NCBI GenBank assembly: GCA_003133025.1
Contig: PKZK01000254.1
Span: 1 to 32,437, forward strand
From: Vulcanimicrobiota bacterium
GTDB taxonomy: Bacteria; Vulcanimicrobiota; Vulcanimicrobiia; Vulcanimicrobiales; Vulcanimicrobiaceae
Length of the DNA stretch: 32,437 bases
Direction: 5' to 3'
The notes beneath the pieces were generated by a model. That model ran no database searches. It was not told the origin of the DNA and saw nothing but the letters and a program-made list of their open reading frames with translations. Below are positions 11,282 to 29,076 of this stretch, in pieces (position 1 is the stretch's first letter; each line of letters opens with the position of its first letter). Position numbers and translations under genes: made by a program.

Positions 11282-11644
11282 ATGCACCTCTCAAGCTACG
11301 TACTGCCCGCCTCGGGCGACCGGCAGTGCGTCGCCGTGCTCGAACTCTCAGGTGACGTGGATTTGGACGAGCGGCAGCGCTTGATCGATGCCGTCGACGA
11401 CGCAGCCGCTGGGCAGAGCACGCTCGTCATCCACCTCGACAACGTCCGCTACATGGACAGTATCGGGCTGAGCGTCTTGATCCGCGCGCACAAGATGATG
11501 CGCGATCGCGGCGGTTGTTTCACGGTTGTTGCCGCCACGCCCCAAATCAGGCGACTCGTCGTGATGACCGGCTTGGACCGCTTATTCGGCCTGCACGAGG
11601 ATCTCGACCGCGCGGTGCGCGCGGTGAGCGCACCCGCGGCGTAG
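11282..11644 (+). CDS. STAS domain anti-sigma factor antagonist (RsbV/SpoIIAA-like)
   Basis: LELSGDVDL...LVIHLDNVRYMDSIGLSVLI (phospho-acceptor DS motif)...IRRLVVMTGLDRLF. Confidence 0.9.
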   Translation: MHLSSYVLPASGDRQCVAVLELSGDVDLDERQRLIDAVDDAAAGQSTLVIHLDNVRYMDSIGLSVLIRAHKMMRDRGGCFTVVAATPQIRRLVVMTGLDRLFGLHEDLDRAVRAVSAPAA

Positions 11645-11711: not shown

Positions 11712-11993
11712 ATGAAGAGCAACTTCCGTCTCCGCAGCCTCACCCTACCGATACTCGTCGCCGCGATCGCGAGCGCGGGAACCGCAGCGCAGGCAGCGCA
11801 GGTCGCGCTGCCGACGGCGCCCGCTGCGGACAGAGCGTCCATCGGCGGCTACACGGCCGCGCGCGCGTCGTTGCCCGGCGACAACGGTTCGCCGCTCGAA
11901 CCGTATCTCTATCTTGCGATACTCGCCGGCGGCGGCATCATCGCGGCGGTCGGCGTCGTGGCGAGCGATCGGCGAATCCGCGGCGCGCGCTAA
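11712..11993 (+). CDS. Small exported protein with C-terminal membrane anchor (93 aa)
   Basis: Signal peptide (MKSNFRLRS + hydrophobic stretch + AQA), Ala/Pro linker, hydrophobic helix YLYLAILAGGGIIAAVGVVA and basic tail RRIRGAR. Confidence 0.65.
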   Translation: MKSNFRLRSLTLPILVAAIASAGTAAQAAQVALPTAPAADRASIGGYTAARASLPGDNGSPLEPYLYLAILAGGGIIAAVGVVASDRRIRGAR

Positions 11994-12358
11994 GCCGCCG
12001 CTGCATCGGCTGCCGCCGACAAGAACGCCAAAACGCTCGCCTCCAGCGGGCTGAGGCCCTTGATGCGCCGGCGCTTCGGCAACGTGACGCCACCGAGGTC
12101 AGCGAGTGCGGCCAGCACCGACGGGTGAACGTAGCACTTTCGGCAGATCACCGGCGTGTTGCCGAGCTTCGCAGCCACGATTGCCAGAGCTTCGTTTGCG
12201 GTGGTGCGCCGCGCGGCTTGCGTGTCGCATTTCTCGCGCGACGCGAGCTCCTCGGCGCATGCGACCGTTGCCAACCACGTGCGAAAGTCTTTCGCCGTGA
12301 AGTCGTCACCGCTGGCCTCGCGCAGATAGGCGTTGACGTGGTTTGGCAACGCTTCCAC
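11990..12358 (-). pseudogene. DNA topoisomerase IB C-terminal fragment (122 aa)
   Basis: VNAYLREASGDDFTAKDFRTW and LGNTPVICRKCYVHP are bacterial TopIB motifs. The N-terminal ~200 aa are absent, and the divergent SDR gene begins 70 bp upstream. Confidence 0.8.
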
Positions 12359-12394
12359 GCGGGCTCATACCGGAGCGGTCATTCCCACTTGCGC

Positions 12395-12419
12395 GTTTGG
12401 CGCAACCTTCCCGCGGTAG
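12395..12419 (+). promoter_or_regulatory. SigB/SigF-like promoter GTTT-N15-CGGTAG
   Basis: GTTT 12395-12398 and CGGTAG 12414-12419, 8 nt before the SDR ATG; no SD sequence. Confidence 0.55.
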
Positions 12420-12427
12420 AACGATGT

Positions 12428-13411
12428 ATGCCCCGCTCGCAAAAGCCCGACCCGTTCTTCGCCGGCAAGACGGCGCTCGTCACCGGCGGCACCCGCGGAC
12501 TCGGACTCGCGATCGCCCGCGCGCTCCTCGCCCGCGGGGCCAAGATAGCGGTCTGTTCGCGCGATGCGCGGGAGGTCGAAGCTGCCGCCCTCGCCCTCGG
12601 CACTCCGGAGCGCGTGCTGGCGAGCGTGTGCGACGTGACCGATGCGGCGGCCGTCGCGAATTTCGTGGCGGAGATCGAGTCGCGGCTCGGGCCCATCGAG
12701 ATCGCGATCAATAACGCGGGCACGATCGTCGTCGCGCCCTACGAAGACATGACGCTCGACGACATCCATCGCGTGGTCGAGGTCAACTTTTTCGGCGCCG
12801 TCAACGTGATGGAGGCCGTCGTCCCCGGCATGCGTCGTCGCAAGCGCGGCTCGATCGTGAACGTCGCCTCGGTCGGCGGCGTGATCCCCGTGCCGCACCT
12901 CGCCGCCTACTGCGCAAGTAAGTTCGCGCTCAACGGTTTTTCTTTGACCGTCGGCGCCGAACTGCGGCGCTCGGGGATACGCGTGAGCGTGGTCAATCCC
13001 GGCCTGATGCGCACAGGCAGCCCGGGCAATGCGACTTTCAAAGGAAACGCCAAGGCTGAGTACGGCTGGTTCGCACTGTCCGACTCGCTGCCCCTGATCA
13101 CGATCTCGGCCGAACGCGCGGCGCGGCAGATTCTGCGCGCGTGCCGAAATCGCCGGCCCTTCACCATCCTCTCGTTGCCGGCCGGCCTGGGCGCGCTGGC
13201 CCAAGGCCTCGCCCCCAACGCCGTCGCGCTGCTGATGAGCCTCATAACCCGCCTGCTGCCGCAGCCCACGGGCGATCGCGCCCGCTACGCCCGCGGTCAC
13301 GAGAGCGAATCGCCGTTGGTCCCATCGGCCTTGACCACGCTCACCCAGCGTGCCGAAGTGCGCAACAACGAGTTGCCCGCGCGACGTCCCGCGCTCGACC
13401 TACCCGGCTAG
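12428..13411 (+). CDS. SDR family oxidoreductase with C-terminal extension
   Basis: ALVTGGTRGLG, INNAG, VNFFG, NVASVGG, catalytic YCASKFAL, VNPGLMRTGS. Confidence 0.92.
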   Translation: MPRSQKPDPFFAGKTALVTGGTRGLGLAIARALLARGAKIAVCSRDAREVEAAALALGTPERVLASVCDVTDAAAVANFVAEIESRLGPIEIAINNAGTIVVAPYEDMTLDDIHRVVEVNFFGAVNVMEAVVPGMRRRKRGSIVNVASVGGVIPVPHLAAYCASKFALNGFSLTVGAELRRSGIRVSVVNPGLMRTGSPGNATFKGNAKAEYGWFALSDSLPLITISAERAARQILRACRNRRPFTILSLPAGLGALAQGLAPNAVALLMSLITRLLPQPTGDRARYARGHESESPLVPSALTTLTQRAEVRNNELPARRPALDLPG

Positions 13412-13521
13412 ACGCCGCTCCCCCGTGCGGAAGTAGGGGTCCCCCCATACTCGCCGCTCGAGGGGCGCGCTACCGTTCTGTCAACACCTCGAGCAGGGCA
13501 GGGCCCATGAAGGAATGACAG

Positions 13522-14520
13522 ATGCGCGTTCGGTTCTCGCTGTCCGCTACGCTGATGGCGGCACTTTCACTCGCCGGCTGCAGCGGCGGCGGCCTCGCCC
13601 CGGCCTCACTTCCGGACCAAGCCTCGGTGCAGCCGGACGCGCACGGCGGTCCGCAGGCGGCCAAGACCGGTCTGCTCTACGTGGCGCTGCCCAACAATAA
13701 CGAGATCTTGATCTTTCCGCAGAACGCCAAAGCCAGCACGCCGCCCTCCGGCTACATCTCCGGTTCGAAAGCGAAGCTGGACGAACCGGTCGGCGTGTTC
13801 GTCGACTCGAGCGGTCAGTTGTTCGTCACCTGCACGATCACGAACGCGGTGAACGTCTACAAGGCCGGCGCGGCGGGCAACAAGGCTCCGGCCAGTCAGA
13901 TCTCGGGCCACAAAACCCAAATCAGCAAACCCATCGGCGTCGCCCTCGATTCCAAAGGCAAGATCTACGTCGCCAGCGCCAACACCAACGAGATCGAAGT
14001 CTTCGCCGCCGGCGCCAAGGGCAACGTCGCGCCGCTCTACACGCTATCGGGAACCGCCACGCTACTCGACAATCCCGCGGGCATCGCCCTGAACGCGAGC
14101 GATCAACTGATCGTAGCCGACGAAGGGGATAATGCCGTGACGGTCTTTGCCGCGGGAGCTTCCGGGAACACGGCGCCGATCGCGACGATCAGCGGCCCGG
14201 CGACCGGCATCGACGAACCCGGCGGCGTCGCCGTCGATGCGGCCGGCGACATCTACGTGACCAACTACGCGGCCAACAGCATCGTCGAGTTCTCGCCCGG
14301 CTCCAAGAACAATGCCACCCCGATCGTGAGCATCAACGGCACGAACACGCAACTCGATGCCCCGACGGGCATCGCCGTCAACGCCAGCGGCACGATCTTC
14401 GTCGGCAACTCGCTGGCGAATCAGGTCAACACCTACCTCGAAGGCGACGACGGCAACTCGCCTCCGGCGGTCTCGATCACCGACGGCATCACGCACCCCT
14501 ACGGCGTCGCGTTACATTGA
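13522..14520 (+). CDS. NHL-repeat beta-propeller lipoprotein
   Basis: Lipobox LSLAGC. Repeats of the form P.G.A.D..G.IYV.N....I..F..G..GN.AP...ISG..T. Confidence 0.88.
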   Translation: MRVRFSLSATLMAALSLAGCSGGGLAPASLPDQASVQPDAHGGPQAAKTGLLYVALPNNNEILIFPQNAKASTPPSGYISGSKAKLDEPVGVFVDSSGQLFVTCTITNAVNVYKAGAAGNKAPASQISGHKTQISKPIGVALDSKGKIYVASANTNEIEVFAAGAKGNVAPLYTLSGTATLLDNPAGIALNASDQLIVADEGDNAVTVFAAGASGNTAPIATISGPATGIDEPGGVAVDAAGDIYVTNYAANSIVEFSPGSKNNATPIVSINGTNTQLDAPTGIAVNASGTIFVGNSLANQVNTYLEGDDGNSPPAVSITDGITHPYGVALH

Positions 14521-14524
14521 CCGC

Positions 14525-14548
14525 CGGCGCAGCCGCTTCGCTGCGCCG
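14525..14548 (+). terminator. GC-rich hairpin right after the NHL gene (terminator or stabilising stem; no U-tract)
   Basis: CGGCGCAGC-cgcttc-GCTGCGCCG forms a perfect 9-bp stem, 4 nt after the stop codon. Confidence 0.4.
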
Positions 14549-14740
14549 CTCGAGCCCGATCATGCGATTGTCTGCGGCCTCGATGGCCCAGATGATCGCA
14601 CCGAGCTTTGCGTTCATGGCCGACGCATCGCGCGATTTGGCGTTGTTCAGCAGATACCCGATGCTCGTGCTACGAAACAAGGAGCGATAGTCGCTGAGCG
14701 ACCGTGCGTGAAGGCAGCGGTCGCCGGGCATCATGGGTTC

Positions 14741-16858
14741 ATGCAGAAGAAGACCCGCAAGAGCACCGCTCGACCCACGGACGAAGCGAGCAACCGGCCC
14801 GATCTCGACGCCTTCCGCGTCGACGACGCGGGATCGGAGCTGACGACCAACCAGGGCGTCCGCATCGCCGACGATCAAAACTCGCTCCGCGCGGGCGAAC
14901 GCGGGCCCACCTTGCTCGAGGACTTCATCCTCCGCGAGAAGATCACGCACTTCGACCACGAACGTATTCCCGAACGCGTGGTCCACGCCCGCGGTGCGGG
15001 CGCGCACGGCTATTTCGAGTTGTACGAATCGCTGGAAGAGCATACGCGGGCGCGTTTTCTGAGCGAACCCGGCGTCCGCACGCCGGTCTTCGCACGCTTT
15101 TCGACGGTCGGCGGCTCGCGCGGTTCGGCCGACACCGTGCGCGACGTGCGCGGATTCGCGGTGAAATTCTACACGCCCGAGGGCAATTACGATTTGGTCG
15201 GCAACAACATGCCGGTCTTTTTCATCCAAGACGCGATCAAATTCCCCGATTTGATCCACGCCGTCAAACCCGAGCCGCACAACGAGATCCCGCAGGCCTC
15301 CTCGGCCCACGACACGTTTTGGGACTTCGTCTCGCTGACGCCCGAGTCGACGCACATGCTCCTGTGGCTGATGTCCGACCGCGCGCTGCCGCGCTCGTAC
15401 AGCACGATGGAAGGCTTCGGCGTGCACACCTATCGCCTGGTCAACGACCAGGGCGATGCCACGTTCGTGAAGTTTCACTGGAAGCCGCTGGCGGGCGCGC
15501 ACTCGCTCGTCTGGGACGAAGCCCAAAAGCTGGCCGGCAAAGATGCCGACTTCAACCGCCGCAACATGTGGGAAGCGCTCGACCGCGGCGACACTTTCGA
15601 ATGGGAACTCGGTCTGCAACTGTTCTCCGAAGATGACGCAGACCGCTTCGACTTCGACATCCTGGACCCGACCAAACTGATTCCCGAAGAACTCGTGCCC
15701 GTTCGTCGCGTCGGTAAGATGGTGCTCGAGCGCAATCCCGACAGCTACTTTTCCGAGACCGAACAGGTCGCGTTCTGCGTGTCGCACGTCGTGCCGGGCA
15801 TCGATTTCAGTAACGACCCGCTGCTGCAAGGCCGCATCTTCTCGTATCTCGACACGCAACTCTCGCGACTCGGCGGTCCGAACTTCCACCAGATTCCGAT
15901 CAACCGTCCGGTGTGCCCGTTTCACAACAACCAGCGCGACGGCATGCACCAGATGGGCATTCCGGTCGGACGCACGTCGTACGATCCCAACTCGGTCGGC
16001 GGGGGTGCCCCGAAGGAAGTACGCGTCGAAAACGGCGGTTTCGCGAGCTACCTCGAGCGGCTCGAAGGCGACAAGCGCCGCGTGCGCGCCGATTCGTTCA
16101 AGGACTATTACTCCCAAGCCACGCTCTTCTGGAATAGCCAGTCCGACGTGGAGAAGGACCACATCGTCAGCGCGTTCTCGTTCGAACTCACCAAGGTCGA
16201 GCGGCCGGAGATCCGCGAGCGCGTGCTGGGCCTGTTGGCCAATGTCGACGCGACGCTGACCGCTCGCGTCGCCGAAAACCTCGGCCTCGACGCACCGAAA
16301 GGCGCAACGTCATCCACGCGAAACGGCAAGAAGAACGGCAAGACCGCGTCGCCGCAAGCCTCGCCGGCGCTCAGCCTCGCGGATCAGCCCGGAAGCCCCA
16401 AGGGCCGTTCGGTCGCGATCCTGGCGGCGCCCGGCGTGGACGCCAAAGCGCTGGCTACCGTGAAGAAGGCGCTACTCGCCGCGGGCGCCCAGGTGAAGGT
16501 GCTGGCACCAAGGCTCGGCGCCCTCGGCCGCAATGGCACTGCGATTGCGGCCGACAAGACGATCGTCACCACGCCCTCGGTCGTTTTCGACGCGGTTTAC
16601 GTCCCGGGCGGCACACGGAGCATCGAGACCCTCGCGCAATCCGGCGACGCGCTGCATTTCGTCGCCGAGGCCTACAAGCACGCAAAGCCCATCGCGGCCT
16701 CGGGCGAAGGTGCCGACCTGCTCCAGCAAGCCGGCGTCGTCGAAGGCCCGGGCGTCTTGATCGAGGATGCGTCGGCGTTGGTAACGCAATTCGTCGAGGC
16801 GCTCGGCGGTCACCGCATCTGGGCGCGCGAAGCCGCCGCCCAACTCATCCCGGCGTAA
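14741..16858 (+). CDS. katE: Large-subunit monofunctional catalase HPII with C-terminal DJ-1/flavodoxin-like domain
   Basis: LTTNQG...RGPTLLEDF; active site [26 protein letters not shown]; proximal heme motif [10 protein letters not shown]-terminal FDAVYVPGG...EAYKHAKPI. Confidence 0.96.
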
Positions 16859-17426
16859 TCGACCAGTCGATGGGCTTGAAGGCGTATCCGTTGGATTGCT
16901 CGGCGGAGCACGCCGTCAAGCCCACGAGTAGGTCGCATTCCGCGCGCAGGGCGATCCGATCGCCCGCGCGCGAAAGCGGCGGCAGCACGCGCAGGCTGCC
17001 GTCCGCGGCCATCTCGACATTCATGAACGCGTTAAACGTCGTGCCGATGTCGTCGTCGTCGATGCCGTGCGGCGCGAGCGCCGTCGCGAGGTTCTCGAGA
17101 CAACTGGGGTGCGGCTCGTTTGAGCCGTAGATGATGCGAAAGGTGTCGGGGCTGCACGGCGTCAGCAGAAAGTCGTGTACGCCGACCGTGTCTTCGACGA
17201 TCGTGAACATCGGAACGCTGCGATTCGAATACAAGATGTGGCCCACCGTGAGCCGCGTCGTGCTCGCGTAGTCGATACTCCGCCCCGATGAGAGCCGCGC
17301 GCGCCGGTCGTGCGCGTCGAAGGCCATCACGTCGGCTACCTGACATCCGAACGGGTCGACGATGTGCAGCACGTCGCCGCGCGCCAGCACGAACGCCGTA
17401 CCCGATTGGGGCGCGAGCCGCTGCAT
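16845..17426 (-). CDS. DUF1989 / urea carboxylase-associated family protein
   Basis: MQRLAPQSGTAFVLARGDVLHIVDPFGCQVAD...LSSGRSIDY...LYSNRS...DTVGVHDFLLTPCS...HPSCLENL...FNAFMNV...DLLVGLTACSA. ATG 17426 overlaps the upstream stop (TGATG); alternative start at 17450. Confidence 0.9.
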   Translation of the reverse strand: MQRLAPQSGTAFVLARGDVLHIVDPFGCQVADVMAFDAHDRRARLSSGRSIDYASTTRLTVGHILYSNRSVPMFTIVEDTVGVHDFLLTPCSPDTFRIIYGSNEPHPSCLENLATALAPHGIDDDDIGTTFNAFMNVEMAADGSLRVLPPLSRAGDRIALRAECDLLVGLTACSAEQSNGYAFKPIDWSITPG

Positions 17427-18220
17427 CACGGGCGAAACGGGCAACGCCATGTACCATCGACCGGCCGGCCCGCGTACTGGCGCGCCTCGGAGTGCGTGCC
17501 GAAGTCGGCCACGTTGCTGTTGAGCGACCCATCCAGCTCGATCTCCCGCACGCGGATCTTCTCCTGGAGCCCGTCGAAGCGGCCGTCGTCGCGTAATTGC
17601 TCGAACTGTTCGTGCGCGTTGAAGACGAGCGTCGGCCATGCGAACCGGCGCGCGCTCCGCGACGCGCCCGGGTGCAGACCCACGACGAAAAATGCGCTGC
17701 CCGCGAAACTGTAGGAGAAGTGCGGGTCGTCCGGATCGCTCGAGACGTGCGGGTCCGGCCGATGTAGCGGGCGATCGAGTGCGTGCAATGCCTGGAGTTG
17801 CTTCCACAGGGCGCTCTCGAAGCTCACCTCGGGGTCGTCGTCGCCGGCAACGTCGCGGAAAACGGCTACGAACGTGGTGAACGTCGATTCGAACCCGTGT
17901 CGCTCCGTAGCGAAGGCGTACAGGTCCCTCGCTAAACCGGCCGTGGCCGCATCTGAGGCGAGCGTTCCGTACGCGCCGAAACGGTAGGTGCCGCGCGCGA
18001 GCGCTGCGCGTGCCCCCAGACACGAAAATTCGGGCGCCTGCACGAACGCGCGGAACGCGGCGTGCGCGACCAGTTCGAACGGCCTGGGAGCCGCGGTCTC
18101 GAGCAGGCGCGTCAAGTCGGCGCCGTCGTAGCCGGCGTACGCGCTGTGCGCTCGCGCCAAGTCGGAGTCGAAGGGATTGCGATGCCAAGCGCGCTCGAGA
18201 AAAGAGTGCGTTTCACTCAT
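17426..18220 (-). CDS. YqcI/YcgG family heme-dependent protein (GntA/DcsA-like guanidino N-hydroxylase family)
   Basis: FSCLGARAA...FESALWKQLQALH...VSSDPDDPHFSYSFAGSAFFVVGLHPGASRSARRFAWPTLVFNAHEQFEQLR...IRVRE...SEARQYAGR...WRCPF. Start placed at ATG 18220. Confidence 0.85.
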   Translation of the reverse strand: MSETHSFLERAWHRNPFDSDLARAHSAYAGYDGADLTRLLETAAPRPFELVAHAAFRAFVQAPEFSCLGARAALARGTYRFGAYGTLASDAATAGLARDLYAFATERHGFESTFTTFVAVFRDVAGDDDPEVSFESALWKQLQALHALDRPLHRPDPHVSSDPDDPHFSYSFAGSAFFVVGLHPGASRSARRFAWPTLVFNAHEQFEQLRDDGRFDGLQEKIRVREIELDGSLNSNVADFGTHSEARQYAGRPVDGTWRCPFRP

Positions 18221-18256
18221 TGGGGCCGACACTTCGAAAACATGATCGCCAAACTT

Positions 18257-18282
18257 ATACCGGAAAGCGGCCTCTCGGAAAC
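18257..18282 (-). promoter_or_regulatory. SigB/SigF-like promoter GTTT-N16-CGGTAT
   Basis: The minus strand reads GTTT-ccgagaggccgctttc-CGGTAT, 36 nt upstream of the YqcI/YcgG ATG. Confidence 0.55.
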
Positions 18283-18374
18283 GTCGCTCGAACGGCGGCC
18301 ATGCGAGCGGTCTACCCCCTTGGAGCGGAACGCGCCGGAAGGATTTTCCGCGAGCGGGGAGAGCAAGACCTGAG

Positions 18375-19910
18375 ATGGGTTTGTCGAGCTTCATGCCGCA
18401 CGGCATGTGTTTTCTTTGGGATCCGCGTCTTCTCGGGGTCCACGTCGTCGCCGACGCTCTGATCGCCGTGGCCTATTTCTCCATTCCGGTGTTCTTGATT
18501 TGGGTGCTGCGCAAGCGCGGCGACCTGCCCTTCTCGTGGCTACTCGGCATGTTTGCGCTCTTCATCGTCAGTTGCGGGATGACGCATATCATGTCGATCT
18601 GGGTCATCTGGCATCCCGACTATTGGGCCGAGGGTGCGGTCAAGTGGGTTACGGCGGTTGCCTCGGTCGGCACGGCCCTGATGCTTATTCCGTTGACGCC
18701 GCGCATCCTGAGCATCCGTAGCCCCGAACAGGCGCAATCGCTCTTGGACCGGCTCAGCCGCGAGCATTCGATCGCCACGTCGTTTCAGAACGCGTCGCTT
18801 TCGCGACTGCCCGACGACACGCCCGGCCTCGAAATCGACGCAATATACCGGCCGGCCGTGAGCGATCTCGAAATCGGCGGCGACTGGTACGACGCGTTCT
18901 CCCTGCTCGACGGAAGAATGCTCGTGTCGATCGGCGACGTGGCCGGCAAGGGACTGGAAGCGGCGGTCGTGATGTCCAAAGTCCGCCAAGCGATTCGCGT
19001 GGCGGGCCAGGTGCAGATCGATCCTGCCGCCATCCTCAACGCCGCCGATCGTGCGCTCCGGACCGAATATCCGGACACTATCGTGACCGCATTTGTCGGC
19101 ATCTTCGATCGCATCGAGCGGCAATTCGTCTTCGCCAGCGCCGGACACCCCGGTCCGCTGCTGCGTTCGCCCGGCGGTCGCGTGGAATTTCTCGAGGACT
19201 CGTCCTTGCCGCTCGGTTTACGTCTGCGCGAAGAGGCCGGAATCGTGCAGTGCCGCGAACTCGAGGTCGGTTCGCTTTTCGTCCTCTACACCGACGGCCT
19301 CACCGAAGCCACTCGCGACGTCGCCGCGGGCGAAATGCGGCTCTGCGAGGCGGTTGGCGGGCGCGACACGTTCGAGGCGCGCAATCCGGCCCAGCTGATC
19401 CACGAGCGGGTGGTCGGCGACACCGCCCGCGACGACGTGGCGGTGCTGACCATTCGCGTCACCAATCTCGAATTGGAAGACGATTCGCGTTGCCGGCACT
19501 TCGATGCCCGCGATCACGAAGCGACCGAGAGTGCTCGCGCGGAGTTCGCGGAGTTCTTGGCCGCGCGCGGCGCGAGCAAGGAGCAAGCCTTTAACGCGGA
19601 ACTGATCTTCACCGAACTCCTGGGCAACGCGCTGCGCTACACCCCCGGGCCCGTGGAGACGCGCATCGAGTGGAATCGCGGCACTCCCGTCTTGCACGTC
19701 ATCGACGAGGGGCCCGGCTTCCAATTCGTCTCGCGCTTGCCCGCCGATATCTATTCCGAAGGTGGACGCGGCTTGTTCTTGATCTCAGCGCTGGCCGAGG
19801 ATTTTCACGTGTCGCGCCGTCGCTCGAAGGGCAGCCACGCGCGCGCGGTACTCTTCTCCACGGCCGCGACCCTCAGCGCACGGACGGGCGTCACGGCTCA
19901 CTCGGCCTGA
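18375..19910 (+). CDS. Ethylene-receptor-like membrane sensor fused to a SpoIIE/PP2C phosphatase and an RsbW-like HATPase_c domain
   Basis: N-terminus FMPHGMC...ADALIAVAYFSIP...FIVSCGMTH...VKWVTAVASVGTALML is ETR1-type. PP2C motifs IGGDWYD, IGDVAGKG, SAGHP, YTDGLTE, RDDVAVL. HATPase motifs ELLGNALRY, VIDEGPGF, SEGGRGLFLI. Confidence 0.9.
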   Translation: MGLSSFMPHGMCFLWDPRLLGVHVVADALIAVAYFSIPVFLIWVLRKRGDLPFSWLLGMFALFIVSCGMTHIMSIWVIWHPDYWAEGAVKWVTAVASVGTALMLIPLTPRILSIRSPEQAQSLLDRLSREHSIATSFQNASLSRLPDDTPGLEIDAIYRPAVSDLEIGGDWYDAFSLLDGRMLVSIGDVAGKGLEAAVVMSKVRQAIRVAGQVQIDPAAILNAADRALRTEYPDTIVTAFVGIFDRIERQFVFASAGHPGPLLRSPGGRVEFLEDSSLPLGLRLREEAGIVQCRELEVGSLFVLYTDGLTEATRDVAAGEMRLCEAVGGRDTFEARNPAQLIHERVVGDTARDDVAVLTIRVTNLELEDDSRCRHFDARDHEATESARAEFAEFLAARGASKEQAFNAELIFTELLGNALRYTPGPVETRIEWNRGTPVLHVIDEGPGFQFVSRLPADIYSEGGRGLFLISALAEDFHVSRRRSKGSHARAVLFSTAATLSARTGVTAHSA

Positions 19911-21709
19911 GCGAACATCCCCGCCAGCACTTCCTTGACCGACTGCGCGAAGACGGTCGCGCCTTCGGGATCGCCCTTGAGCATCGCCTTGCCGAACGAG
20001 ATGATCTGTTCGCTCGTGATGTTCGGTGGAAACATCGAGATGTTCGGATCGGTCAGTACCTCGACGACCACCGGGCCGCGCGCCGCGAAGGCCGCATCGA
20101 GCGCCGGAACCAGTTCCTCAATGTGCTCCACGCGCATGCCCTCAAAGCCGAGCAGACGGGCGAAGGCCGCGGTCGAGACGTCGGGCAGATGCTGCGACGC
20201 CGGAAAATCCGGCGCGCCGCTCTCTTCGCGCATCTCCCACGTAACCTGGTTGAGGTCGCGGTTGTTCGCCACGATGAAGATGATCCGCGGGTCGCTCCAG
20301 CGGTGCGCGTAGTGGCGCAGCGTGATCAGCTCGTTGATGCCGTTCATCTGCATTGCGCCGTCGCCGGTGACGGCGATCGCCACGCGTTCGGGAAAGGCGA
20401 GTTTCGCCGCGATGGCATACGGCACCGCAGGCCCCATCGTGGCCAGCCCGCCCGAAAGCGACCACTTCATCCCGCGTCGCATCTGCAGGTGCCGGGACGA
20501 CCAATTGGTCGAGGTTCCCGCGTCGGCGGTGATGACGCAGTCGTCCGGCAAACGCCGGTTGAGTTCGACGAAGAGGTCCTGAGGGTTGATCCCGTCGCTA
20601 CCGGAAATCCGTCCCCGCGCGGCGTCGATCTGCGTGCCCTTCTCGCGATGGCGCGCGATCGTCTCGCGCCACGAGGCATCGGTCTTTTGCTCGAGCAGCG
20701 GCAGGAGCAATTCCAGCGTGTCGAGCGCGGTGCCGTGCAAGTTGACTTCGTTGGGAAAGCGCAGGCCGAGCCGCAGCGGGTTCGCGTCGATCTGCACGCC
20801 CCGAACCTTGTCGTCGGCCGGCAAGAATTGCGCGTAGGGAAAGTTGGTGCCGATCATCAAGAGCGTGTCGCACTGCTGCATCATCTCGTTCGATGCGAGC
20901 GTGCCGAGCAAGCCGATCGTGCCGGTTACCCAGGGCAGATCGTCCGGCAGTACGGCCTTGCCCAGCAGGGCCTTCGCGCAGCCCGCCTGCAACCGGTCGG
21001 CGACCGCTTCGATAGCGTCGACCGCGCCAATCGCGCCCGCACCCACGAGGATCGCCACCCGGCTGCCCGCGTTGAGCACGTCGGCCGCGCGCTGCAGGTC
21101 GTGCGGGTGTGGCACGATCCGACCGGGCGCAAAGCCGACGCCGGAATTCGCGAAATTCATGTGGTGCGGCGGCTGCTCGACAGCCTTCTCCTCCTGAAGA
21201 TCCTTGGGCAGGATCAGGGCCGTCACCGTGCGCGCGCCGAGCGCGCCGCGTACCGCGCGGTCGACGCCATGCCGCACGCCGGCCGGGTCCATCAGCGTGA
21301 GGAGATACTCGCTCGCTACGTCCTTGAACAAGCTTTGCAGGTCGACTTCTTGCTGGTATTCGCTGCCGATAGCCGTCTTCGCCGCCTGCCCCACGATCGC
21401 GAGCACCGGGACGTGATCGTTTTTCGCGTCGTACAGCCCGTTCAGTAAATGGATTGCGCCGGGTCCGCTGGTGGCCAAGCAAACGCCGAGTTCGCCCGTA
21501 AACTTCGCATGCGCGGTGGCCATGAACGCGGCGTTCTCTTCGTGACGTACCTGCACGAAATCGATGGCGTCGCCGCTCTCCGCATGCGCGCGCTGATGCA
21601 TGTCGATCGCGTTGATGAGCCCGTTTATCCCGTCGCCGGGATAGCCGAAGATACGCCGCACACCCCACGCATGGAGTCGCTCGATCAGGAATTCGCTAAC
21701 GGTGGCCAT
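19898..21709 (-). CDS. Thiamine pyrophosphate-requiring enzyme (pyruvate oxidase-like)
   Basis: WGVRRIFGYPGDGING, QVRHEENAAFMA, ATSGPGAIHLLNGLYDA, SGGLATMG, and the TPP motif GDGAMQMNG...NNRDLNQV. Confidence 0.93.
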   Translation of the reverse strand: MATVSEFLIERLHAWGVRRIFGYPGDGINGLINAIDMHQRAHAESGDAIDFVQVRHEENAAFMATAHAKFTGELGVCLATSGPGAIHLLNGLYDAKNDHVPVLAIVGQAAKTAIGSEYQQEVDLQSLFKDVASEYLLTLMDPAGVRHGVDRAVRGALGARTVTALILPKDLQEEKAVEQPPHHMNFANSGVGFAPGRIVPHPHDLQRAADVLNAGSRVAILVGAGAIGAVDAIEAVADRLQAGCAKALLGKAVLPDDLPWVTGTIGLLGTLASNEMMQQCDTLLMIGTNFPYAQFLPADDKVRGVQIDANPLRLGLRFPNEVNLHGTALDTLELLLPLLEQKTDASWRETIARHREKGTQIDAARGRISGSDGINPQDLFVELNRRLPDDCVITADAGTSTNWSSRHLQMRRGMKWSLSGGLATMGPAVPYAIAAKLAFPERVAIAVTGDGAMQMNGINELITLRHYAHRWSDPRIIFIVANNRDLNQVTWEMREESGAPDFPASQHLPDVSTAAFARLLGFEGMRVEHIEELVPALDAAFAARGPVVVEVLTDPNISMFPPNITSEQIISFGKAMLKGDPEGATVFAQSVKEVLAGMFAQAE

Positions 21710-21719
21710 AGGTAAAGTA

Positions 21720-21745
21720 TTACCGCGCGACCGTCCTCACAAAAC
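21720..21745 (-). promoter_or_regulatory. SigB/SigF-like promoter GTTT-N16-CGGTAA
   Basis: The minus strand reads GTTT-tgtgaggacggtcgcg-CGGTAA, 10 nt before the ATG of the TPP enzyme; no SD sequence. Confidence 0.6.
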
Positions 21746-22021
21746 AACCACGGTAGCGAATATCGAGCACCTGTTTGAGGGCCCAATGCAGGGGGAATCA
21801 TGAGCGCGTCCTACCGAAAGCCGCGGCAAATGGGTTTTAGTGCTTTCCCCACGCGCCGCGACACCGCCAGAAGCATGAGGTAGGGGAAGCGCAGACTTCA
21901 CGCGGCCACGTGAAGCAACCCGGGAGACTCCGCGAGGGGTCTCTCTTTCATGTGTATCATACCGTGCAGACGCGGTAGCGCCTTGTGAGTCGGCAGCTCC
22001 GATTTTGGGAAAGCCCCAAAG

Positions 22022-24313
22022 GTGGACACCTTTGCGCCTGCGGACTCGATTGGTATGTCGGCGAGCGAGCTCGATGCTCGCTCGGATTTCGGAGATGCCG
22101 TCACCCTCGAATCGATTGGAGCGTTCGGCAACGTCTCGTTCGAGGTGCGGCGTGGAAAGCGTAACGTCTGGCTGATCTCTTCGATCGATGGGCGAGACGC
22201 GCTCGCGCTCAGGCTCGGCTTTAGCAGCATTGATCTCGAACGTATCCACACGACGACGGGCTCCGACGGCGTATTCGTGTTAGAGTTCAATGGGTCCCTG
22301 GGAGCGATGCGCGCGAAGATCGCACTCGTCGATCCCGACGCCGGCATCGTGCGCTGTACTACGTCGTTGCTGCCGGCTGTCGATGTCGTGGTGGCGGGGT
22401 GCCCCAACGACCTCTATGCCGTTGAACCTCACATCGGCACCGTACATACGTTTCAGCGCGGCCTGAGAACCGGCATCGTGTTCGCGAGTTGCGGCCTCCC
22501 GACGCCGTTCTCGCTCTTCTATCTGCAAGACTTCTCTTCGCTCGACGAGTTCTTCACAGCCGTCAAACGCTCGCCGGCCGCCACCGTGAGCGGCCGGTGG
22601 CCCGAACTCGGCTACGCCTCGCCCGGCGGCGATGGGTGCATTCTCGAGAAGGCCCACGAAGTCGTCATCTCCGACGTGTACCTCACGCTCTCGGAACGCG
22701 TGCCCTCGAACGAGGCCGAGACGGCGGCGCTCTATCTCGATCTGCTCGCCGCAACCTACCTGCGGCTGGAGCGGCCGAAGCCCGAATATCACGATTGGCC
22801 GTCGCGCGCCGAGAAGACGCTCCGCGACCTGTCGCTTTCACCCGACTGCACCGCAGCCCATGACGGTTTACGTTATCTCAAACCGTACGTCGGCGACGAT
22901 GCGAAGCCCCCGGAAAGCATGGTGCAGTTCACCGTCGCGTCCAACATCCACGAGTACGAGCGCTGGGCAAAGCAGGAGACCGTTTTGGCCGCTCTTCTCA
23001 GGGCGACCGTACCCACGTTCTTCGACGAAACCGTCGGCTCGATCGTTCGCTGGCTGCCCACGGCGCAGTTCGCCGATGCGCAAGCCGAAGAGAATATGAA
23101 CCACAGCGCCATGGACAGTTGGTACCTGCACCACGCGCTCTTCAACGCCTGGCGCATGGCGCGTGAGTGCGAGAGTGCCGATGCGAAGCGTCTTTTCCGC
23201 GCGTCGCTGCCCTACGTGGTGCGCGTGGCGCGACGCTTCGGTTACCGTTGGCCGATCTTTTTCGACCTGCGTACGCTCGACATCATTCGCGCGGAGGCCG
23301 AACCGGGAAAGGGCGGCGAAACGGATGTGGGCGGCATCTACGCGCTGGTCATGCTGCACGCCTACGAAATGTTCGGCGACGCCGACTACCTCGAAGAAGC
23401 GAAGAGAGGCGTGGAGTCGCTCCGGGGGCTGGGCTTCGCGCTCGGCTATCAGTTGAACACGACGGGTTTCGCCGCCGAGGCGGCGCTGCGCCTCTGGAAT
23501 CTCACCGGCGAACGCACCTATCTCGAACTGTCGGAGATCTGCCTGGCCAATATTTTCGACAACATGTGGCTCTGGCGCTCGAGCTACGGCAACGCGCGTT
23601 ACTATCGGACGTATTTCGGGCTCTTCCCGCTGCGCGACGCACCCTACATCGCCCCGTTCGAGGAATTGGAAGCGCAAGCGAAGTTCTTCGACTTCTTGGC
23701 AAACGGCGGCGACGACGTGCGTCCCTCGCTCCGTTTGCTCTTGGCCGAGTACCAGAAGTATAATTTGGATCGCGCGTGGTTCTATTACCCCGACACGTTG
23801 CCCGTCGACGTCGTCAGCGAGGATCCGCGCAACGGCCGGATAGAACGCGGCCTCTCGGTCCCGTTGGAAGATCTGCAAGACGGGTTCGCGACGTCGGGGC
23901 AGGTGGGCCAAGAAATCTATGGAGCGGGCCTGCCCTTCGTGCTTGCGAGCCGGCACTACGTTCGCGTTCCCGACGCCGGCTACATGCTCTACTGCAGCTA
24001 TCCGGCCTACGACTTTGCGTTGAGATGCGAATCGGGCGGCGTACGAGCAACCTGGCGCATCGGAGGCGATTCGCGCGGCGCGTGCGACCTGCGGCTAATT
24101 CCCATCGAGCCGAACATGGCGCCTGCCGTCGTCACGGTAACGGTGGAGGCCGGTACGATTCGCGTGCCGCTGGAGGGCCGGCTAACGCCGGAGGGTCACG
24201 CGGCGTTCGAGGTGCGAGGCGGAACCGACGTCGAGATCGGCATCCTCGCGCCGGCCGGAGCCGTGCCCGAGCTCGGCCTCCTGATCGGAGCGTCTGCCGT
24301 TGCAGATGCCTAG
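22022..24313 (+). CDS. Large uncharacterised protein (763 aa); beta-rich N-terminus plus probable (alpha/alpha)6 six-hairpin glycosidase-like domain
   Basis: Long ORF with aromatic/acidic enzyme-like composition. Hairpin repeats YALVMLHAYEMFGDADYLEEAKRG and AEAALRLWNLTGERTYLELSE. GTG start is uncertain. Confidence 0.7.
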   Translation: MDTFAPADSIGMSASELDARSDFGDAVTLESIGAFGNVSFEVRRGKRNVWLISSIDGRDALALRLGFSSIDLERIHTTTGSDGVFVLEFNGSLGAMRAKIALVDPDAGIVRCTTSLLPAVDVVVAGCPNDLYAVEPHIGTVHTFQRGLRTGIVFASCGLPTPFSLFYLQDFSSLDEFFTAVKRSPAATVSGRWPELGYASPGGDGCILEKAHEVVISDVYLTLSERVPSNEAETAALYLDLLAATYLRLERPKPEYHDWPSRAEKTLRDLSLSPDCTAAHDGLRYLKPYVGDDAKPPESMVQFTVASNIHEYERWAKQETVLAALLRATVPTFFDETVGSIVRWLPTAQFADAQAEENMNHSAMDSWYLHHALFNAWRMARECESADAKRLFRASLPYVVRVARRFGYRWPIFFDLRTLDIIRAEAEPGKGGETDVGGIYALVMLHAYEMFGDADYLEEAKRGVESLRGLGFALGYQLNTTGFAAEAALRLWNLTGERTYLELSEICLANIFDNMWLWRSSYGNARYYRTYFGLFPLRDAPYIAPFEELEAQAKFFDFLANGGDDVRPSLRLLLAEYQKYNLDRAWFYYPDTLPVDVVSEDPRNGRIERGLSVPLEDLQDGFATSGQVGQEIYGAGLPFVLASRHYVRVPDAGYMLYCSYPAYDFALRCESGGVRATWRIGGDSRGACDLRLIPIEPNMAPAVVTVTVEAGTIRVPLEGRLTPEGHAAFEVRGGTDVEIGILAPAGAVPELGLLIGASAVADA

Positions 24314-25428: not shown

Positions 25429-27822
25429 TTGGCGTTGACCCGAGGAAACCGGCCAGCCGTTTTGGTCGCCGGATCGGTCCTTTTGGCCGCGCTCATCGCG
25501 GTCGCCGACTGGTTGTTGCCCTCTATTCAACTCGCCTATCTGGAAATCGTACCGGTGCTCGTGATCGGTGCCGTGCTGGGGCTGCGCGCCGGCATTGTGG
25601 CCACAATCGCCATAAGTGTGCCGCTGACGTACCTCGAGTACGCGGGCGGATTTCGGCCCCGCGAGTCGAGCATTGCGGCCAATATCGCGATCATGATCGC
25701 CGTCTTCGTTTTCGTTTCGCTGCTCTTCGAGCGCTGGCGGAGCGCCGAGAGCGAGCGCGTTCGGCAACAGGCCGCGGCGGATCGTGAGCGGCTCGTCGAG
25801 CGCTTGGTTGAAGCCAGCGCCGATAGCGTTAACGTGCTCGACGCCGCCGGCCGCATTGTGTTCGTCAACGCACACGGCCAACGGGCTCTCGGCATCAGAG
25901 ATTTCGCGTCGATTGCCGGTACCGACTGGCTGGATTTGTGGGCGGCAGAGTATCGAAGCGATGCGAGCGCAGCGTTCTCCGTCGCCCGTTCCGGCGGCAG
26001 TGGCCGGTTCGTTGCCGCGCGCGCCAGCGGAGGGCGCGACACGTGGTGGGACGTTTCTGTAACGCCGATCGCCGAGGGTGACACAGGTGTTCGCCACTAT
26101 CTTGCGGTCGCGCGAGACGTCACGGAAACCGTTATGATCCAGCGCGCCCTCGCTCGCTCGGAAGAACGCTACCGGCTGGTGGGCGCGTCGTTGCCGGGTA
26201 CCACGTGGACCGCAACGCCCGATGGCCTTCTCGACCACATTAGTGAGGGTGCCAACCCCATGGACCTTCCGGTCGAGTCTCTGCTCGGCCCCGCGTGGCT
26301 CGACATCGTGCATCCCGACGATCGTGACCGCGCGCTCTCCGTTTGGCGCACGGCGCTCGAGGCGGGTGCGCCTTACGACGTCCAGTTTCGCATCCGCATG
26401 GCCGGTGGCGTCTACCGTTGGCACCTCGTGCGGGCTCTTCCGCAGCGTGACGAAATGGGAGCGATCGTCCGCTGGGTTGGCGTCAACGTCGATATCGACG
26501 AGCAGCACCGGGCGGACGAACGGCGCGCGAAAATCGAGAACGGGTTGCGCGCGCTCGCCGAGGCCGGCGCGGAGATGTACGGCTCGCTCGACTTCGAGGA
26601 GACGCTGCGGAACATCGCCGAAGCGGTTGCGAAGTCGTTCTCCACCGCGTGCACGATCGATTTGCTCGGCGACGGCGGCGAATATCGGCGCGTGGCCGTG
26701 GCTCACCCGCGCGTCGATATGCGTTCGCTGTTCGAGCGGTACACGGATGCGAGCCGCTTCACCGAGCAACATCCGATCGTTCGAGCGATCCGGTTTGGAC
26801 GTTCGACCTGCGTCACCGACGTGCTCGACGGCTGGTCGACGACACAATCGGAGTCCCTCGTCGCCGTTGTCGAGATGCTCCGCTTGAGATCGATCCTGTG
26901 CGTTCCCGTTCGGGCGCCCGATGGATCGGTGATCGGCGCGCTCACCTGCAGCCTCGATCGTGACGATCCACGGCCGGCATACGTCCCCGAGGATATTCCG
27001 TTCGCCGAGGAACTCGGACGACGCGCCGGCATCGCGGTCCAGCACGCACGCGCGTACGAGCGGGAGCGAACGATCGCGATGCGCTTTCAGGAAGCGTCGC
27101 TTCCCTCCACTCTGCCGGCGGTCGGCGGCCTGCGCTTGTCGGCGGACTATCGGCCCGGGAACACGGAGGCGACGGTCGGCGGCGACTGGTATGATGCCTT
27201 CGAACTCGATGATGGCCTCGTCGCGATCACGATCGGTGACGTCGTCGGGAAAGGTCTCGGAGCCGCCGTCACGATGGCCACGCTACGCCAGGCGATGCGC
27301 GGCGCCGCGTCGCTCTTGCCCAAGCCGAGCGCGATGCTCGATGTCGCCGAGCGCACGATCCGCAACATGCCGGCCCAAACCTACGCAACGGCGCTGGTTG
27401 CGATATTCGATCCCCGGCTCCGTGAAATGATCTTTGCGACGGCGGGCCATCCCCTACCGGTCGTTTGCTTCGCCGATGGCGCCGTGCGCGAGCTGGTCGG
27501 TGCCGGTCCGATGCTCGGGCTCGGCGAGAGACACGTCGAGGAAACGACGGCCACCGTCCCGGCCGGTTCTGCGCTTGCATTCTTCACCGATGGTCTGACC
27601 GAATCGACGCGGAACCTCGACGAAGGCTACCGGCGCCTTCGCGCCGCGCTCACCGATCCTCGGGTGCGAGCGGCGGAAAACCCCGCGCGAGCGATCGTCG
27701 AGCACGTACTCGAACGCGGACAGGCGCGTGACGACATTGCCGTTCTCGTGATGCAAACCGCGGTTGCGAAAGGCGACGCTGAAAAAAGCGCCCGTGAGGG
27801 CGCTTTCTCCTTGGCGCGTTGA
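25429..27822 (+). CDS. Membrane-PAS-PAS-GAF-SpoIIE/PP2C sensor phosphatase
   Basis: About four N-terminal TM helices; PAS VLDAAGRIVFVN...VARDVTE; PAS IVHPDDRD...YRWHL...WVGVNVDID; GAF SLDFEETLRNIA...EELGRRAGIAV; PP2C VGGDWYD, IGDVVGKG, TAGHP, FTDGLTE, RDDIAVL. Confidence 0.9.
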   Translation: MALTRGNRPAVLVAGSVLLAALIAVADWLLPSIQLAYLEIVPVLVIGAVLGLRAGIVATIAISVPLTYLEYAGGFRPRESSIAANIAIMIAVFVFVSLLFERWRSAESERVRQQAAADRERLVERLVEASADSVNVLDAAGRIVFVNAHGQRALGIRDFASIAGTDWLDLWAAEYRSDASAAFSVARSGGSGRFVAARASGGRDTWWDVSVTPIAEGDTGVRHYLAVARDVTETVMIQRALARSEERYRLVGASLPGTTWTATPDGLLDHISEGANPMDLPVESLLGPAWLDIVHPDDRDRALSVWRTALEAGAPYDVQFRIRMAGGVYRWHLVRALPQRDEMGAIVRWVGVNVDIDEQHRADERRAKIENGLRALAEAGAEMYGSLDFEETLRNIAEAVAKSFSTACTIDLLGDGGEYRRVAVAHPRVDMRSLFERYTDASRFTEQHPIVRAIRFGRSTCVTDVLDGWSTTQSESLVAVVEMLRLRSILCVPVRAPDGSVIGALTCSLDRDDPRPAYVPEDIPFAEELGRRAGIAVQHARAYERERTIAMRFQEASLPSTLPAVGGLRLSADYRPGNTEATVGGDWYDAFELDDGLVAITIGDVVGKGLGAAVTMATLRQAMRGAASLLPKPSAMLDVAERTIRNMPAQTYATALVAIFDPRLREMIFATAGHPLPVVCFADGAVRELVGAGPMLGLGERHVEETTATVPAGSALAFFTDGLTESTRNLDEGYRRLRAALTDPRVRAAENPARAIVEHVLERGQARDDIAVLVMQTAVAKGDAEKSAREGAFSLAR
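27782..27806 (-). terminator. Intrinsic terminator of the minus-strand repeat lipoprotein gene (possibly bidirectional)
   Basis: AAAGCGCCC-GTGA-GGGCGCTTT inverted repeat. On the minus strand the GC stem is followed by TTTTTT. Confidence 0.7.
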
Positions 27823-27831
27823 TGCGGGCGG

Positions 27832-29076
27832 TTACAAGGTTACGTTGAAGATCCCGCCCTGCTCGTTTGCGCCTCCGCTGTACAGCGTACCCCAGAGCGC
27901 GCCTTCGAAATACACGAGCGGCGCGAGGGACGAGCCTCCACCGGTCGATGCCGGAAAATTGCAGAGTTCGGTTTCCGTACCCGCCGGCGTGACCGAGAAG
28001 ATCGCGCCCGAGCCGTCCGGGTTCGTGTTTGAGTATGCCGTGCCGTAGAACGTGCCGTTCACGTTGATCAGGCTCGCCGGCAGTTCTGCATCGTTCTGAG
28101 CCGCGAAGCTATAGATGACGGTCTCAGACCCGCTCGGAGTGATCTTGAAAACCGAGCCGGTGTTATTCGCTCCGCCTTGGTATGTGGTTCCGTACAGGTC
28201 GCCCTTATATTCGAGCAGGCCTCCAGTGGGCTGCCGGCCGTCGGGTTGTCCGGTGAAGCTGTGCAGCACCGTTTCCGTGCCGCCCGGCGTCACCTTGAAG
28301 ACCGTTCCAACGTTTGCGGTCCCGCCGCCGGCCGTCGTGCCGTAGAAGGCGCCCTTGTAGTAGATCACCCCCGCGAGGGGGTGCGCGCCGTCGGGCTGCT
28401 GCTGGAAGTTGTAGACCGTCTTTTCGATGCCCGACTTCGTGACCGAGAAGACCGTACCGGCTCCCCCCGAGCCGGCCTGTGACGTCGTGCCGTAAAGTAT
28501 TCCGCCGACTTTGATCAACGTCGACTGTGGGTTCTGGCCATCGGTAGAGCCGCCCGCAAAGCTGTAGACGATGTGCTCCTTCCCTTTGGTCGTAATGGCG
28601 AAGACGCTGCCGTCGTTGTGTTCGCCGCCGTTGTTCGTGGTGCCGTAGAGCGTACCGCCGACATCGAGGAGGGAGGATTGCGGACTAAAACCGTCGGGGT
28701 CGCCCGTGAAGTCGTGCAGGAGCGACTCCGTTCCCGACGTGGTGTACGCGAAGACCGTGCCCGCGCTTGCGCTTCCACCCCCCGCCGTGCTTCCGTACAA
28801 CGTGTTTTTCACGGCGGTCAGACCGCCCCACGGTGAGGCACCGTCGGGCGTGCCTTTGAAACTGTACAGCACGTTGCAGCTGGCGCCGTCACGCTTTACG
28901 TTCCGCTGCAGCGACGCTTGCGTCCGCTGACCGGCACCGAGCGTCGCGTTGCCGGCGGCGGTTGCCACCGGCACGTTGCCGCCGCCGCCGCCGCAGCCGG
29001 CCACGGCGGCCGTAGCGCACAAAGCCAAGAATTTGCCGCTTCCTTCGCGGAAGCGAAGGCGTCGAGTTGCGAGCAT
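27832..29076 (-). CDS. Beta-propeller tandem-repeat lipoprotein (choice-of-anchor GloVer-like repeats)
   Basis: GGGAGG RBS and lipobox AVAGC. Seven repeats of LYSF.G.PDG..P...L....G.LYGTT..GG....G.VF..T..G.E. Confidence 0.88.
   Translation of the reverse strand: MLATRRLRFREGSGKFLALCATAAVAGCGGGGGNVPVATAAGNATLGAGQRTQASLQRNVKRDGASCNVLYSFKGTPDGASPWGGLTAVKNTLYGSTAGGGSASAGTVFAYTTSGTESLLHDFTGDPDGFSPQSSLLDVGGTLYGTTNNGGEHNDGSVFAITTKGKEHIVYSFAGGSTDGQNPQSTLIKVGGILYGTTSQAGSGGAGTVFSVTKSGIEKTVYNFQQQPDGAHPLAGVIYYKGAFYGTTAGGGTANVGTVFKVTPGGTETVLHSFTGQPDGRQPTGGLLEYKGDLYGTTYQGGANNTGSVFKITPSGSETVIYSFAAQNDAELPASLINVNGTFYGTAYSNTNPDGSGAIFSVTPAGTETELCNFPASTGGGSSLAPLVYFEGALWGTLYSGGANEQGGIFNVTL

Follow-up and report, generated by a model that had tools for sequence, protein, structure and literature searches.

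Ethylene receptors and partner-switching phosphatases

The described bacterial ethylene receptors AzoEtr1 (Azospirillum brasilense) and SynEtr1 (Slr1212, Synechocystis PCC 6803) share a three-helix N-terminus with seven binding residues. Theirs are the two bacterial domains with published tests, and both are reported to bind ethylene saturably (PMC6682694, PMC11819568). They go on to PAS or bilin-binding domains, a His kinase and a response regulator, and Arabidopsis ETR1 carries GAF, His-kinase and receiver domains. In plant receptors, kinase activity is described as minor, with output passing through CTR1 (PMC11971883). For the question of how ethylene binding in the membrane is converted into output, a phosphatase receptor of 511 residues, such as the one described here, would give a direct in-vitro readout.

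A second set of systems joins a sensor through a helical linker to a PPM phosphatase acting on a STAS serine. RsbU/RsbP-RsbV-RsbW-SigB of Bacillus subtilis, SypE-SypA of Vibrio fischeri and HsbR-HsbA of Pseudomonas are built in this way, with RsbT, PAS or receiver domains as their described inputs and none with an ethylene-binding domain. SypE is reported to be a dual kinase/phosphatase (PMC8256260); SypA and HsbA reach targets other than SigB, and partner switches also act on diguanylate cyclases (PMC8256260; 10.1101/674879). A coiled-coil linker is reported to dimerise and activate RsbU, and the same has been modelled for Rv1364c of Mycobacterium tuberculosis (PAS-PP2C-GHKL-STAS). The same work proposes that sensors are exchangeable among PPM phosphatases, His kinases and GGDEF proteins via such linkers (PMC12143880); the word ethylene is absent from its available text.

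An ETR1-type sensor joined to a phosphatase and a GHKL domain

The window, meaning the whole stretch of 32,437 nucleotides from an uncultured bacterium that we analysed, contains an intact open reading frame of 511 amino acids on the + strand, from the ATG at 18375 to the TGA at 19910. The features of this gene, and a STAS gene considered below, are as follows:

18375..19910, + strand: ETR1-type sensor, predicted coiled-coil linker, PP2C phosphatase and GHKL (RsbW-like) domain (open reading frame, Pfam, model mean pLDDT 87)
18393..18419, + strand: N-terminal MPHGxCxxW motif (H9, C12), near invariant in the family and in diverse bacterial ETR1-type domains
18429..18716, + strand: ethylene-binding-type three-helix membrane domain with D27, Y34, I37, P38, I64, C67, H71, K90, S97 and P109 (PF25487 at 127 bits, hydropathy, published numbering)
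18699..18797, + strand: helical linker continuing into the first phosphatase helix (model helix 117-141; P109 to Q138 is 29 aa)
18828..19460, + strand: PP2C/SpoIIE (RsbU-type) phosphatase with metal-site residues D170, D188, D307, D353 and D354 (PF07228, family invariance, alignment to Rv1364c and SpoIIE)
19485..19850, + strand: RsbW/SpoIIAB-type GHKL ATPase with E414, N418, D444-G446-G448 and G464-R465-G466 (PF13581, motif conservation, family profile matching RsbW 6M36 and SpoIIAB)
11282..11644, + strand: STAS protein encoded on its own, candidate substrate carrying D-S-x-G as phospho-site motif (PF01740 and TIGR00377, both above their cut-offs)

Pfam placed ETR1_N (PF25487) at residues 19-114 (E 2.6e-37, 127.4 bits against a cut-off of 27, model positions 2-97 of 97), SpoIIE (PF07228) at residues 179-362 (128.7 bits, cut-off 25) and HATPase_c_2 (PF13581) at residues 381-488 (50.5 bits, cut-off 27.4), with HATPase_c under its cut-off. 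No further Pfam model exceeded its cut-off in the 511-aa protein, those for GAF, HisKA, receiver and STAS domains included. Hydropathy peaks at residues 24-42, 60-78 and 89-107, and two models predict three long helices (17-47, 54-79 and 83-113) followed by helix 117-141, with a model pLDDT of 91.5 over residues 1-141. The preliminary description had put D27, Y34, I37, P38, I64, C67, H71 and K90 on three N-terminal hydrophobic helices, which is where they lie. It had also read the remainder as a short linker, an intact PP2C domain and an RsbW-like HATPase, free of GAF, His-kinase and receiver domains; Pfam agrees, and the catalytic motifs are kept. It had named as a possible refutation a profile assignment of the N-terminus to an unrelated membrane sensor family; the PF25487 profile and the residue tests given below speak instead for a true ETR1-type domain.

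Whereas AzoEtr1, SynEtr1 and ETR1 lead into His kinases, this sensor leads into a Ser/Thr phosphatase and a GHKL domain, with no His-Asp relay. Rv1364c also has PP2C directly followed by an RsbW-like domain, and its RsbU-RsbW part (3KE6) is the top structure match (Foldseek E 6e-20, 27% identity). Its input, however, is a soluble PAS domain and it has a built-in STAS domain, in contrast to the membrane gas-sensor input and the lack of a fused STAS domain here.

The arrangement recurs. A whole-protein search gave 1463 matches among 7996 scored candidates, and in 80 of the 120 homologues listed (query included; 44-100% identity) our own profiles found the three domains together, so that the combination of ethylene-binding, SpoIIE and HATPase domains for which the preliminary description proposed to search genomes proves to be a conserved family. 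Among the remaining listed homologues, one is shorter and without GHKL, and 39 are fragments or lack the sensor, carrying GAF, PAS or other inputs on PP2C-GHKL. Public annotations name the family proteins by the phosphatase or the anti-sigma part alone.

A search of literature listings and abstract openings found no report of an ethylene-binding domain joined to a PP2C or anti-sigma domain, in keeping with the earlier remark that no characterised example of this coupling was known. Surveys of such architectures (Wang 2006; Lacey and Binder 2016; a JBC review of 2020) reportedly mention outputs other than His kinases, so PP2C fusions may already stand in one of their lists. The word phosphatase is absent from the available text of the two bacterial receptor papers (PMC11819568, PMC6682694). 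The sensor and the phosphatase-kinase modules are each known, and their join is the new element; also new are the heptad-step linker lengths, the probable repeated joining to PP2C paralogues and the association of carriers with photosynthesis genes.

We propose, with about as much confidence as doubt, that the protein is a Cu(I)-dependent ethylene receptor, likely a dimer, and that it likely controls the phosphorylation state of a STAS protein and thereby the activity of a SigB/SigF-type factor encoded elsewhere. The wider statement, that ethylene or a similar copper-binding gas sets a stress switch, is likely.

The sensor keeps the ethylene-binding residues

We matched the sensor to ETR1 by the Pfam profile and by residue spacing against published numbering rather than by pairwise alignment. 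The preliminary description had matched seven ETR1 residues at a constant offset of +2. This stands for D25, I35, P36, I62, C65 and H69, and presumably for Y32, which we take to be Y34 here; the residues of helix 3 lie at -1 instead, with K90, S97 and P109 equivalent to K91, S98 and P110 of AtETR1. Between the H69 and K91 equivalents, the protein has three residues fewer than ETR1. Its spacing is that of AzoEtr1: AtETR1 D25/C65/H69/K91 are reported to correspond to AzoEtr1 D35/C75/H79/K98 (PMC11819568), and D27/C67/H71/K90 equal the AzoEtr1 numbers minus 8 at all four positions. In ETR1, I35, P36 and I62 are described as binding residues and S98 and P110 as transmission residues (PMC6586836), and roles are reported for the pairs D25-H69 and D25-K91 (PMC10266040; PMC11971883).

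Across the 77 family members covering the binding positions, 58 keep all seven; D, Y and H are invariant and C is present in 76. Pro38 to Ala is the sole change in 15 members, and four show other changes. Replacement by Ala is the kind of change made in the ETR1 alanine scan, and the Pro38 to Ala members suggest that the ligand has drifted in some of the family. Upstream of helix 1, the MPHGxCxxW motif has H9 in 71/71 and C12 in 75/75 family rows covering it, and H9, G10, C12 and W15 are invariant in 61 diverse bacterial domains, in rows collected with a profile that includes the motif. ETR1 has C4 and C6, against the single N-terminal Cys of the HGxC motif here. H9 and C12 could form a disulfide or a second metal site; for cyanobacterial receptors, a single N-terminal cysteine and a possible disulfide have been described (PMC6682694). 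Solved structures gave no match to the sensor domain by sequence search, nor by Foldseek at E <= 0.001, and a wide fold search of the domain returned generic helical bundles alone (best Z 10.2, rmsd 4.0, 94 aligned).

The sensor might also hold Cu(I) and pass its signal to the same phosphatase-kinase output, yet respond to copper status, CO, oxygen or redox state, another small alkene or a thiol. We give this reading a little under half the weight of the ethylene reading. Several observations are in its favour. ETR1-type domains occur widely among bacteria without any obvious connection to plants, one is fused to a copper pump (P0131, below), the invariant His-x-x-Cys motif is an extra element, and the 15-member subgroup, to which copies adjoining bchH in G291 and G292 belong, keeps D, C and H but has replaced the Pro essential for binding by Ala. 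In the papers covered here, binding data concern two bacterial domains, SynEtr1 and AzoEtr1. Against it, the 18375-19910 protein keeps all seven binding residues together with the K91, S98 and P110 equivalents, and both tested relatives with this set bind ethylene. We keep ethylene as the proposed ligand for this protein.

Linker lengths step by heptads

We could measure the linker in 81 of 82 proteins. From P109 at the end of helix 3 to Q138 in the first phosphatase helix, the distance is 29 aa in 23 proteins, 36 in 4 and 43 in 53; in one further protein it is 223 aa, with a PAS insert. Three lengths in steps of seven would have a chance of about 1 in 49 if the lengths were independent, but only two or few events underlie them. 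The long linkers have a hydrophobic a/d pattern, and 52 of the 53 carry an Asn at one of the a positions; both features are typical of parallel two-stranded coiled coils. Because the lengths are confined to the heptad steps 29, 36 and 43, they point to coiled-coil signalling through the linker and lend indirect support to the predicted homodimer. The family fits the published proposal of sensor exchange (PMC12143880).

In the mechanism that we propose, Cu(I) would be held by C67 and H71, with D27 positioning H71 as in ETR1. Ethylene binding would shift helix 3 via a D27-K90 bridge, and the movement would run along a parallel coiled coil to the switch of the phosphatase dimer (alpha0/alpha1/alpha2), in the way already proposed for RsbU and Rv1364c. 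The phosphatase and the GHKL kinase would have opposite actions on the STAS serine, and through RsbW the state of the STAS protein would either release the sigma factor or hold it. For the sign we guess, from plant receptors, that the protein would be active in the absence of gas and damped once ethylene binds. If the proposal is true, the protein is a minimal, directly assayable system for how ethylene binding moves helix 3, in which the natural linkers of 29, 36 and 43 residues provide ready controls for the register. Ethylene perception would then reach into a little-studied phylum of acidic soils and mosses, most of it uncultured; the protein would connect a plant hormone with a bacterial stress switch and would serve as a test of sensor exchange among kinases, cyclases and phosphatases (PMC12143880).

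STAS partner, sigma factor and photosynthesis genes

The preliminary description proposed the STAS protein at 11282-11644 as the substrate for an assay. The evidence does not support it as the specific substrate: the gene lies 6.7 kb from the receptor with intervening genes, has no counterpart beside the closest relatives, and is one of seven STAS matches in the genome, and two other PP2C proteins share the window. The latter are a membrane-PAS-PAS-GAF-PP2C protein (25429-27822, +) and a PP2C-GHKL protein whose start lies beyond the window (31202-32437, -).

The source genome has an rsbV-rsbW-sigB/F-type operon, encoding STAS, RsbW and a SigB/F-type factor, on a different contig, C188, where unreadable bases split the sigma match. 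A SigB/F-type sigma factor exceeds the cut-off in the 11 other carriers, against a background of 115/121 family genomes (ten of them flagged as unpublished and used for the background count only). We had considered this co-occurrence as support and discarded it as uninformative, the factor being near universal in the family; the C188 operon therefore shows that a possible target exists, not that it is the receptor's. At none of the 12 loci is there a sigma gene beside the receptor, and the 11 related loci (up to ~19 kb each, some ended by contig edges) share no conserved neighbours. In two of these 11 (L092 and L098), the receptor gene and a STAS gene overlap at the stop codon of the receptor. 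The L092 and L098 copies belong to other PP2C lineages and have a more canonical RsbW domain, and L098 is without the cysteine. The gene order gives good support for a STAS substrate in these lineages, though not in the main clade.

Divergent from the receptor are YqcI/YcgG heme-enzyme and DUF1989 genes (window 16845-18406, -). They were considered as parts of the system and rejected, being absent beside the 11 related loci. Around the receptor (window 11990-24313) lie a short topoisomerase IB-like reading frame and genes for an SDR, a long catalase, a TPP oxidase-like enzyme and GH130; a 763-aa protein at 22022-24313 has no Pfam or NCBIfam match. Three proteins (5491-6822, 13522-14520 and 27832-29076) look from sequence alone like beta-propeller, lipoprotein-like repeat proteins. 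L092 adjoins trehalose synthesis genes. Upstream of the receptor gene we found no sigma-70-like site, and a SigB/F-like promoter pattern matches one of 10 upstream regions, not the receptor's, a result that carries no information. No copper P-type ATPase exceeds the cut-off in the source genome, which is 80% complete.

Photosynthesis genes are concentrated in the carriers. Reaction-centre genes occur in 30/348 genomes of the family, bchB in 30/348 and either in 31/348, and photosynthesis genes occur in 8/12 receptor carriers against the 31/348 overall (Fisher p 6e-7 by genome; 7/10 against 12/68 by genus, p 0.0014; kin are not independent in either comparison). Shared ancestry or habitat may explain the association. 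In the source genome, bchL, N, B, G and P exceed the cut-off and bchH and bchI/D are found by tblastn, with no match to reaction-centre genes or bchXY at 80% completeness. Immediately upstream of bchN-bchB-bchG-bchP, and in the same orientation, is a stand-alone gene for an RsbW/SpoIIAB-like protein (G000:C45:15509-21163; L112:510-6161), a position hinting at partner-switch control of pigment synthesis. In two genomes of one genus, G292 (L095:8282-13978) and G291 (L097:5417-12223), the receptor, in both cases a Pro to Ala copy, follows a co-directional bchH-like gene near bchI/D and bchL.

A chance slightly below that of the other-ligand reading goes to a receptor that senses ethylene while its STAS partner controls a target other than a sigma factor, such as a diguanylate cyclase, FliA/WhiG motility or photosynthesis genes. 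Switches of this kind are documented in SypE-SypA, HsbR-HsbA and SiaABC (PMC8256260; 10.1101/674879), and the genome offers material for one, with its seven STAS and 17 SpoIIE matches and a FliA/WhiG sigma factor. The enrichment of photosynthesis genes, the two copies directly after bchH and the RsbW-like gene before bchN point the same way. The bchH adjacency, however, comes from one genus, and the window has a general-stress look (long catalase, TPP oxidase-like enzyme, SDR, topoisomerase IB), as does the trehalose neighbourhood of L092. The closest characterised output, that of Rv1364c, is reported to be tied to a stress sigma factor (PMC12143880). We keep a SigB/SigF-type factor as the proposed target.

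Plant and moss metatranscriptome contigs contain short exact matches to the window. Two exact contigs of 151 bases lie inside the gene in the plant metatranscriptome X1 (X2, with identical values, seems to be one and the same data set). Similar contigs are scattered across the remainder of the window in both X1 and X3, and X8 has none. Such matches show that the organism is present; they are no evidence of transcription or of a preferred habitat. A link to alkene oxidation was considered and dropped, with diiron monooxygenase matches in 4/12 carriers and none in the source genome. The signal, we tentatively infer, would most likely be ethylene from mosses or waterlogged peat. A broader picture, possible but rather doubtful, is that phototrophic Vulcanimicrobiota of moss and peat switch a SigB/F regulon or photosynthesis genes by plant or soil ethylene, through a third receptor route with neither a His-Asp relay nor CTR1, the sensor having been plugged in repeatedly in heptad register.

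The GHKL domain as a probable part of the output

The phosphatase metal-site residues D170, D188, D307, D353 and D354 are invariant in 75 aligned full-length members, as are E414, N418, R421, D444, G446, E462, G464, R465 and G466 of the GHKL domain, and the protein has the GHKL N-box, DxGxG and GRG motifs. The family profile has its best match in Rv1364c (E 3.2e-37 over profile positions 161-505) and gives weak matches to RsbW and SpoIIAB (E 1e-4 to 9e-4). The isolated GHKL domain had no match among solved structures and matched the genome's own RsbW weakly (E 0.002). In an NCBIfam-type equivalog test, no RsbW or SpoIIAB model was reached at E 0.01, and the RsbA model scored 42.6 against a cut-off of 210. 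By these comparisons, the domain is diverged from RsbW.

That divergence leaves some room for the phosphatase as the sole output, with GHKL an appendage that came along with the cassette and serves docking or regulation, not catalysis, a view compatible with any of the other readings. Fusions without GHKL exist, and the same PP2C-GHKL cassette ends eight proteins of the source genome with differing inputs. The nine ATP-binding-type positions from E414 to G466 are nevertheless invariant in all 75 members, as expected under selection, and we consider an inert appendage improbable, preferring a GHKL kinase that would oppose the phosphatase.

Spread and origin of the fusion

Among the matches listed, the nearest one with a named record comes from a Vulcanimicrobiota MAG (L002, 80% identity). 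Among 58 loci from species genomes, L002 and L003 alone have the full architecture; L003 carries an Armatimonadota title. Within the source's Vulcanimicrobiota family, the sensor is continuous with the phosphatase in 11/348 genomes, all with GHKL. In a twelfth carrier, G011 (99% complete), the receptor gene is broken by IS256 copies (L099:9270-12773). Against 1.84 billion 50%-identity representatives, sensor and phosphatase occur together in 10 of the best 150 matches to a profile spanning both domains. Five of those 10 (P0136 and P0138-P0141) stop after the phosphatase, without GHKL, and the distant phosphatases of P0140 and P0141 suggest other phyla. The counts from the family, the genomes and the representative library establish that the sensor-PP2C-GHKL fusion is real, conserved and rare. 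Despite the patchy distribution and the broken copy in G011, an assembly artefact or a functionless chance fusion is refuted by the family data, namely the three-domain order in 80 of the 120 listed homologue clusters, and exact 151-base matches come from an independent public run.

Among the 56 ETR1_N proteins scanned at the related loci, the outputs include His kinases, GGDEF, GGDEF-EAL and PP2C-GHKL, and some proteins have no output domain. ETR1_N is thus a mobile module, and PP2C-GHKL a cassette. A tree built from 141 phosphatase domains places 80 of the 90 rows with a sensor on one branch (support 96) and the other 10 with different PP2C paralogues. This PP2C tree, a quick tree with long branches, does not support a single origin of the fusion: it needs nine changes, at least four of them forced by starred branches. 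The sensor-domain tree is poorly resolved (11 changes, three forced). The sensor probably joined the PP2C-GHKL cassette more than once.

Other combinations were also seen. P0131, of 1567 aa, combines ETR1_N and a hybrid His kinase with domains for heavy-metal binding and a P-type ATPase, and P0137 (996 aa) carries ETR1_N, a His kinase, a receiver, PP2C and GHKL in one chain. Stand-alone ETR1_N proteins of ~130 residues occur at L039, L042, L045, L052, L054, L055 and L058, mostly in Maricaulis records.
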